NCBI GenBank assembly: GCA_964016885.1
Contig: OZ024741.1
Location: 352,036,001 to 352,100,000 of the forward strand
Reading direction: 5' to 3'
DNA: 64,000 bases
From: Eledone cirrhosa
Lineage: Eukaryota
In this document: piece by piece, positions 11,975 through 12,457 of the stretch
How positions within the stretch are numbered: position 1 is the stretch's first letter
Layout: each line of letters starts with the position of its first letter
Position numbers and translations under genes: made by a program
Notes under the pieces: generated by a model
Told to the model about the DNA's origin: nothing
Database searches by the model: none
The model's input: only the letters and a program-made list of their open reading frames with translations

Positions 11975-12133
11975 CTCACTGTAAAGTGTCTAGTGAAAAG
12001 CTGAGTACATGTACATATGCATACATGTGTGTATTTATATGCATACTAATACTTCCGTATACATATGTAGATGTACACTTTAACTTAATTGTTTAAGCGT
12101 CAGTCATACAAAAGTGAGTTAGAAGCGAAACGA
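11878..12133 (+). repeat. Element B, a structured non-coding repeat of ~260 bp fused to the hammerhead repeat
   Basis: Diverged homologue at 12955-13214 (minus) and 13224-13446 (plus). Runs directly into the hammerhead-bearing unit at ~12131. Strand is arbitrary. Confidence 0.8.
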
Positions 12134-12145
12134 TAAGCAAGGGAA

Positions 12146-12188
12146 GTAACCTACGCGTTTCATTCTTATTAGAAATCATCAGGATTAC
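12146..12188 (-). ncRNA. Type I hammerhead ribozyme motif (inverted copy)
   Basis: Minus strand reads GUAAUC-CUGAUGA-U-UUCU-AAUA-AGAA-U-GAAA-CGCGUA-GGUUAC. Confidence 0.8.
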
Positions 12189-12457
12189 ATATCCAATGCT
12201 TTTATCGAGAATCTCAAATTGTAATACGTGACATATTCTACTCTATAGCGATTAGGTCTTCAAATGTTTATTATAAACATACAGAATATTTTCGAATATT
12301 CTATGTTTGTCTTCACATATATATCGCTATTTCAGAGCATTAAATCCAAATTCTAATTTCTGCCGGACCGGCTACCGCTCTTTCAAACCAGTTCCTGTAC
12401 ACAGCTAAGTATTCTATAAGTCTCTAGCTGTGTCGTTCTCGATAAAGCATTGGATAT

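Follow-up and report, generated by a model that had tools for sequence, protein, structure and literature searches.

Related elements

Animal non-LTR retrozymes, together with a proposed Penelope origin for them, have been described in two papers (Cervera and de la Pena 2020, PMC7229834; Li, Clavereau and Pollet 2026, bioRxiv 10.64898/2026.07.22.740005). As set out there, these are AT-rich tandem units of 150–450 bp with one type I hammerhead each, present in thousands of copies and co-occurring with Penelope-like elements, and the repeat found in the window (the whole 64,000-nucleotide stretch of Eledone cirrhosa DNA analysed here) is like them in its unit and in its family. It differs from them in being known from sequence, with cleavage and circles that are predicted. 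In the text of PMC7229834, supplements aside, the word 'inverted' is absent and neither inverted or head-to-head arms nor a tail is described; in that of the bioRxiv preprint, again without supplements, 'tail' and 'head-to-head' are absent and 'inverted' occurs only in the title of a reference.

The layout of the insertions is that of Penelope-like elements. According to the available text of Arkhipova et al. 2013 (PMC3846280) and Craig et al. 2021 (PMC8557442), the marks of these elements are an inverted, 5′-truncated copy placed head-to-head with a direct copy, a one-sided tail of 30–40 bp, and (TA)n targets, and one rotifer copy has a 15-bp overlap between its inverted and direct repeats. 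The family in the window has the same head-to-head inverted and 5′-truncated arm, the same tail at one end and the same type of target. A further likeness is to Poseidon of the green anole, for which the available text of Frangieh et al. 2024 (PMC11167929) reports that a purified Penelope-type protein, given AT-rich DNA in vitro, cleaves both strands, extends them and starts at two internal sites a tail apart, with no difference in start site seen between top and bottom strands; a dimer is predicted for Poseidon. An AT-rich target and two internal sites separated by a tail are shared with the insertions described here, as the cutting and extension of both target strands would be, whereas that text has no strand difference and no joint analysis, and here a short end is almost always combined with a long one. 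Two further differences set the present family apart from the Penelope-like elements of the available texts: each arm is a multimer built from a 310/312-bp ribozyme unit with no element reading frame, and the rate at which joints occur is graded by the length of the homology.

In LINE-1 twin priming, two primed cDNAs are joined head-to-head at short homologies; the second primer lies at variable internal sites, and the element has a poly(A) tail. Here, unlike LINE-1, both start sites are fixed and the arms repeatedly cross the ribozyme cut site. The repeat is a new member of the retrozyme family with a known Penelope-type insertion layout, and the homology-graded joint hotspot at a ribozyme stem is a small new addition to that layout. 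No homology-graded retrozyme joints were found in the literature on inverted or head-to-head retrozymes, Penelope twin priming and microhomology joints, taken as the main texts of freely accessible journals.

The repeat unit

The tandem unit is 312 bp long in subfamily A, to which the window locus belongs, and 310 bp in subfamily B, with a GC content of about 35% (counted by hand). Unit positions are numbered such that u1 is the base after the predicted cut. Each unit contains one type I hammerhead with an intact core and stems I–III, of which stem III is short and palindromic. Stem I has at its base a 15–16 bp inverted repeat (u13–27 with u253–267), and its pairing is conserved between the two subfamilies. 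An Rfam scan of the window (E ≤ 1) gave no hammerhead, only TA-driven microRNA matches below their gathering scores, and the hammerhead call therefore rests on motif and fold; other ribozyme classes likewise had no Rfam match in the window. No antisense hammerhead core is present in unit A or unit B.

Exact matches to the core number 16,719 across the genome. From these, together with 795 matches to the long end on the forward strand (double listing makes the reverse-strand figure too high), we estimate some 2,000–3,000 insertions. The insertions are composed of the 310/312-bp unit from end to end and have no RT plus GIY-YIG reading frame of their own. By its sequence the unit is an animal non-LTR retrozyme, for which self-cleavage and a circular RNA are predicted.

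Organization of the window locus

The features of the insertion are as follows.

12131–12211, minus strand: left, inverted arm of a retrozyme insertion of subfamily A, reduced to a stump (u253–312 plus u1–21)
12131–12135, unstranded: left junction to the neighbouring 467-bp family X, a one-off with a single genome match
12152–12182, minus strand: hammerhead catalytic core by motif match and fold, with a predicted cut between 12152 and 12151
12197–12211, unstranded: head-to-head joint, 15 bp common to both arms (u13–27 is the reverse complement of u253–267)
12197–12662, plus strand: direct (right) arm of 1.5 units spanning u13–u168, with its outer end at the long 'tailed' site and (TA)n beyond
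12464–12494, plus strand: hammerhead catalytic core by motif and fold, with a palindromic stem III and a predicted cut after 12494
12627–12662, plus strand: approximate 'tail' between the short (u~132–141) and long (u~165–170) end sites, placed from the distribution of ends
12661–12925, unstranded: (TA)n-type target tract to the right of the insertion

The initial annotation had read this locus as a ribozyme cassette flipped in place between its own inverted repeats, and much of what it observed is borne out. The hammerhead that it placed on the plus strand at 12436–12530 does contain a type I core (12464–12494), a second type I core lies upstream in the opposite orientation (12182–12152), and the flank at 12205–12230, said to lie one period upstream, recurs 311 bp later. 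The switch point is indeed inside the stem I inverted repeat: the minus segment (12135–12211, u17 to u253) and the plus segment (12197–12662) overlap by exactly the 15 bp repeat at the base of stem I. In folding, the plus hammerhead region has z = −5.6 and the reversed hammerhead z = −2.1.

The left side of the locus has a different character. An in-place flip predicts u169–252 there; what is observed to the left of the reversed hammerhead (11880–12133) is diverged family X, a 467-bp tandem repeat with a type I hammerhead of its own, and not the unit's own flank. Of the two inverted repeats said to enclose the cassette, the right one is intact (15 bp), and the left one is a remnant of 9 matching bases with a 2-nt gap; because three of these bases (12131–12133) also fit family X, the apparent left repeat is partly family X sequence. 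The boundary can be read either as a 3-nt microhomology with a 2-nt loss or as a 1-nt insertion, and the junction has one match genome-wide. The stump holds one complete type I hammerhead and lacks the outer ~110–120 nt of the arm. No target-site duplication was found at the window insertion, and among the pieces listed from a comparison of Logan contigs and one RAD run with the locus, none bridges either junction. The reversed hammerhead is the stump of an inverted arm carried by most copies of the repeat, and is no switchable cassette; once the claim of a flippable or ambisense cassette falls away, the locus by itself is ordinary.

Insertions elsewhere in the genome

The arrangement of the family was followed in 60 loci on C1 chosen solely for carrying the long end, 57 of which were assessable (of the remaining three, two run beyond the extracted sequence and one is unresolved). 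First, the arms are head-to-head in 50 of the 57, with six loci single-armed and one complex, and two of the six single-armed loci have an inverted arm about 270 nt away. Second, the ends fall at two sites about 30 nt apart, a short one at u~132–141 and a long one at u~165–170, and the partner of the long end is the short site at 47 of 49 loci and a second long end at none (0/49); the other two partners belong to complex loci, in which the outermost end is also short. Third, two earlier sets of loci picked by BLAST rank, position or junction pattern (n = 74) contain 64 short-long combinations, two long-long, no short-short and eight others, the long-long combination being scored once at L032 and once in the inner segment of the complex locus L041; in an earlier set, 13 of 16 loci are head-to-head. 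Fourth, the flanks of most loci are (TA)n, and informative target-site duplications were seen at 7 of the 43 loci compared, the figure for mismatched pairs being 2.3%. Finally, among the first 17 loci of C1 there are 11 with hammerheads on both strands. Arms were segmented by BLAST, as k-mer segmentation split long arms artificially; junction calls by exact extension are shortened by variants relative to the reference, and negative overlaps overstate insertions.

Five complex loci (L041, L053, L228, L256 and L279) have extra short switched segments at the joint, which suggests repeated template jumps.

The two arms of a locus are closely similar in sequence. In subfamily A they differ at 15 of 7,707 positions (0.19%) within 26 loci, compared with 0.63% between loci, and in subfamily B at 2 of 2,912 positions (0.07%) within 11 loci, compared with 0.81%; none of 10,000 permutations gave a value as low. 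Variants private to a locus are found in both of its arms (e.g. L051, L059 and L099). These similarities fit a copying of both arms from one monomer sequence, which would most simply be a circle; a homogeneous linear multimer or later conversion could also be the source of variants common to both arms.

The stem I joint

A search of the 3.0-Gb genome for exact pattern matches returned 25 copies of the head-to-head stem I joint and not one of the mirror joint, which in-place inversion requires (binomial p = 3e-8 for equal rates). Two of the 25 matches are neighbours 2 kb apart (L222), so that at most 24 are independent, and no shared unique flanks were found among the other joint copies. In 24 of the 25 the reversed arm carries on beyond the second repeat, in most cases as far as either of the two standard end sites, and only the window copy stops at that repeat; the cassette look is therefore a single truncation of a common structure. 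Scored across genomic copies in this way, the joint noticed in the initial annotation is recurrent, and the cassette appearance that went with it is seen in one copy of the 25. The same counts divide the origin that had been suggested for it: reverse transcription and integration remain the likely source, and inversion between the repeats is contradicted by the absence of the mirror joint and by the 24 arms that run on.

A switch particular to the ribozyme is not supported, since inverted repeats of 8 and 9 bp at other places in the unit are hotspots too and most joints lie elsewhere. The background was taken from a control window without long repeats, in which there are 20 joints among 496 possible breakpoint pairs. 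With background junctions scored against unit B (unit A misfits B copies) and two of the 20 unclassified, the matches per distinct junction are 4/295, 6/69, 4/22 and 4/4 for 0, 1, 2 and 3 shared bases, respectively. Joints at inverted repeats number six for the 8-bp repeat, eight for the 9-bp repeat and 25 for stem I (15–16 bp). Expressed per breakpoint pair (by hand), the rate is about 0.04 in the background, 0.7–0.8 at 8–9 bp and 1.5 at stem I (~37-fold), values that are approximate because they derive from exact matches to patterns of unequal length. Stem I therefore stands at the upper end of a gradient that rises continuously with homology.

Stem I joints make up about 1% of insertions, and there are none among 50 in the long-end C1 set, which omits one known stem I joint already taken in an earlier set. 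The inner ends of arms fall inside the stem I arms in 18 of 100 cases against about 10 expected (p = 0.014), an excess first spotted in one set and then tested in another. The main reason why stem I is the commonest joint is its length, which exceeds that of any other inverted repeat in the unit; a tendency of arms to stop there probably adds modestly to this.

A model for the insertions and its alternatives

We are fairly confident that the window insertion consists of two cDNAs made by a Penelope-type enzyme and joined by pairing of the 15 bp of stem I, and that its left arm was truncated later. A Penelope RT/endonuclease, acting in trans, would cut both strands of (TA)n; one target end would then prime at the short site (u~132–141) and the other at the long site (u~165–170) of the same template lineage, the template probably being a circular monomer. 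Both cDNAs would extend toward the 5′ side, and their growth would cease once the 3′ ends have paired through a common sequence or been end-joined. Two cDNAs that meet and pair in this way would account for all of the observations. At the window locus the outer left arm and the 3′ end of the neighbouring family X copy would have been lost in a single end-joining event, and chance or the hairpin may have made this event halt within the second repeat, giving the flipped-cassette look; this loss and fusion to family X are drawn from one case.

More tentatively, and with a likelihood that we place somewhat short of an even chance, a dimeric enzyme may prime both target strands on one circular ribozyme RNA, each strand invariably using a different one of two fixed sites, roll out two multimeric cDNAs, pause preferentially in stem I and close the insertion by pairing in proportion to homology. 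The formation of tandem and inverted Penelope-like insertions is stated to be unresolved in the available text of PMC8557442 and PMC11167929, and if this fuller model is true, the family documents, on the scale of a genome, the final and still unsolved step in Penelope retrotransposition, in which the ribozyme's own stem shapes the DNA joint. The strict pairing of short with long ends is unexplained by the available text of PMC11167929 because there is no strand difference in start site there. This young family gives numbers that can be tested (one short and one long end, one template, homology-scaled joints), and animal retrozymes are tied to Penelope enzymes by the marks of insertion and not by mere co-occurrence.

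Reading frames with RT and GIY-YIG domains are present elsewhere in the genome, and 150 of 10,596 such candidates were scored in the search for a partner. Some of the 43 GIY-YIG places (30 loci and 15 longer stretches, one repeated) have weak patches of 74–82% matching the unit, and among the places examined no specific autonomous partner sharing unit sequence could be tied to the unit. Separately, loci L173–L186 contain long RT plus GIY-YIG frames of at most 1,096 aa, in which a cysteine motif precedes the endonuclease, as described for Neptune-type elements, and some of them have hammerhead-like motifs nearby and inverted copies.

Four other explanations bear on the locus. The one that survives best, which we nonetheless consider unlikely, is that a single cDNA primed at the long end folds back on the stem I repeat and copies itself to give the inverted arm. 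This corresponds to the template switching at the hairpin suggested in the initial annotation, and it resembles a self-priming proposal in the available text of PMC3846280. The joint lies exactly in the base of the hairpin, the 466-nt long arm of the window holds everything that the short arm needs, arms have private variants in common, and arm ends are mildly enriched in stem I; indeed the window locus taken alone fits fold-back equally well. As a general route, however, it fails. At three stem I sites (L077, L079/L080 and L090) neither arm contains the other, a 200-nt arm with the hammerhead and without the tail facing an arm of 152–158 nt with no hammerhead; at 18 of 38 loci the tailed arm is too short to have served as template for the whole of the short-end arm; the lengths of the two arms show no correlation (rho 0.06); and most joints link unrelated positions of the unit.

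An assembly error or a fold-back produced in the library is very improbable. The locus does have long TA tracts around it and an N gap close by, and homopolymer indels are present in this copy, but the same joint is found at at least 24 separate places with no shared unique flanks found, and the short-long rule and the homology gradient extend across loci in a manner unlike that of library chimeras. Slightly more improbable still is in-place inversion between the 15 bp repeats followed by replacement of the left flank with family X. Both ends of the 77–81 nt piece do fall in the two repeat arms; nevertheless, there is no mirror joint to set against the 25 joints, the left flank belongs to another family and the left repeat is a remnant partly supplied by it, and the end of the right arm is at the long site, where the partner of an inverted short arm should end. 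It is scarcely credible that the locus functions as an ambisense unit able to cleave itself on either polarity, although intact cores do lie on both strands within 300 bp: the monomer has a core on one strand only, the window insertion has one hammerhead per strand, too few to release a monomer, and cores on both strands are the by-product of head-to-head insertion, as in 11 of the first 17 C1 loci.

Family X and other repeats in the window

Repeats of three kinds lie among the long TA tracts of this region. Three further retrozyme pieces lie close to the insertion.

11717–12133, unstranded: diverged family X piece, 87–88% identical to young copies, with a palindrome (11717–11975) followed by sense sequence that stops at X~270
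12923–13446, unstranded: separate young head-to-head family X insertion with arms X303>7 and X12>234
14685–15966, minus strand: separate subfamily-B tandem array of the 310-bp unit with four hammerheads, cut by an assembly gap (L111)

The 467-bp unit of family X has a type I hammerhead with a palindromic stem III, and young copies are 99–100% identical (L112–L141). Its insertions are head-to-head too, with ends at X~228–234 and X303 and thus a longer tail of about 70 nt. The palindrome at 11717–11975 is 98% perfect, with a TA tract at its centre and its outer end at X~107, and is unlike the usual direct joint of arm to arm. Unit A (u121–152) and family X near its short end have in common a 32-nt AT-rich motif, a weak match (75% identical, E = 0.07) located around or just before the short end site in families that are otherwise unrelated, and this motif is a candidate recognition signal for the mobilising enzyme.

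The subfamily-B array has its short end in (TA)n, and a gap of 200 N is present at 15970–16169; its partner arm may be absent from the assembly. Taken as a whole, the region from 1454 to 16000 comprises a TA-type tract of 10 kb and, after it, four insertions or pieces of retrozymes in a space of 4.3 kb, and represents repeated targeting of one microsatellite region.

Two other repeats are present in the window. A broken non-LTR retrotransposon reverse transcriptase (RVT_1, E = 1e-27, in two frames) occupies 16205–18506 on the minus strand and contains an internal duplication of 46 bp at 18386–18482. A dispersed repeat of about 185 bp lies at 13804–13988, with copies at 29836, 43008, 55540 and other positions; it starts after short (ATC)n runs and is 96–97% identical in three other copies.
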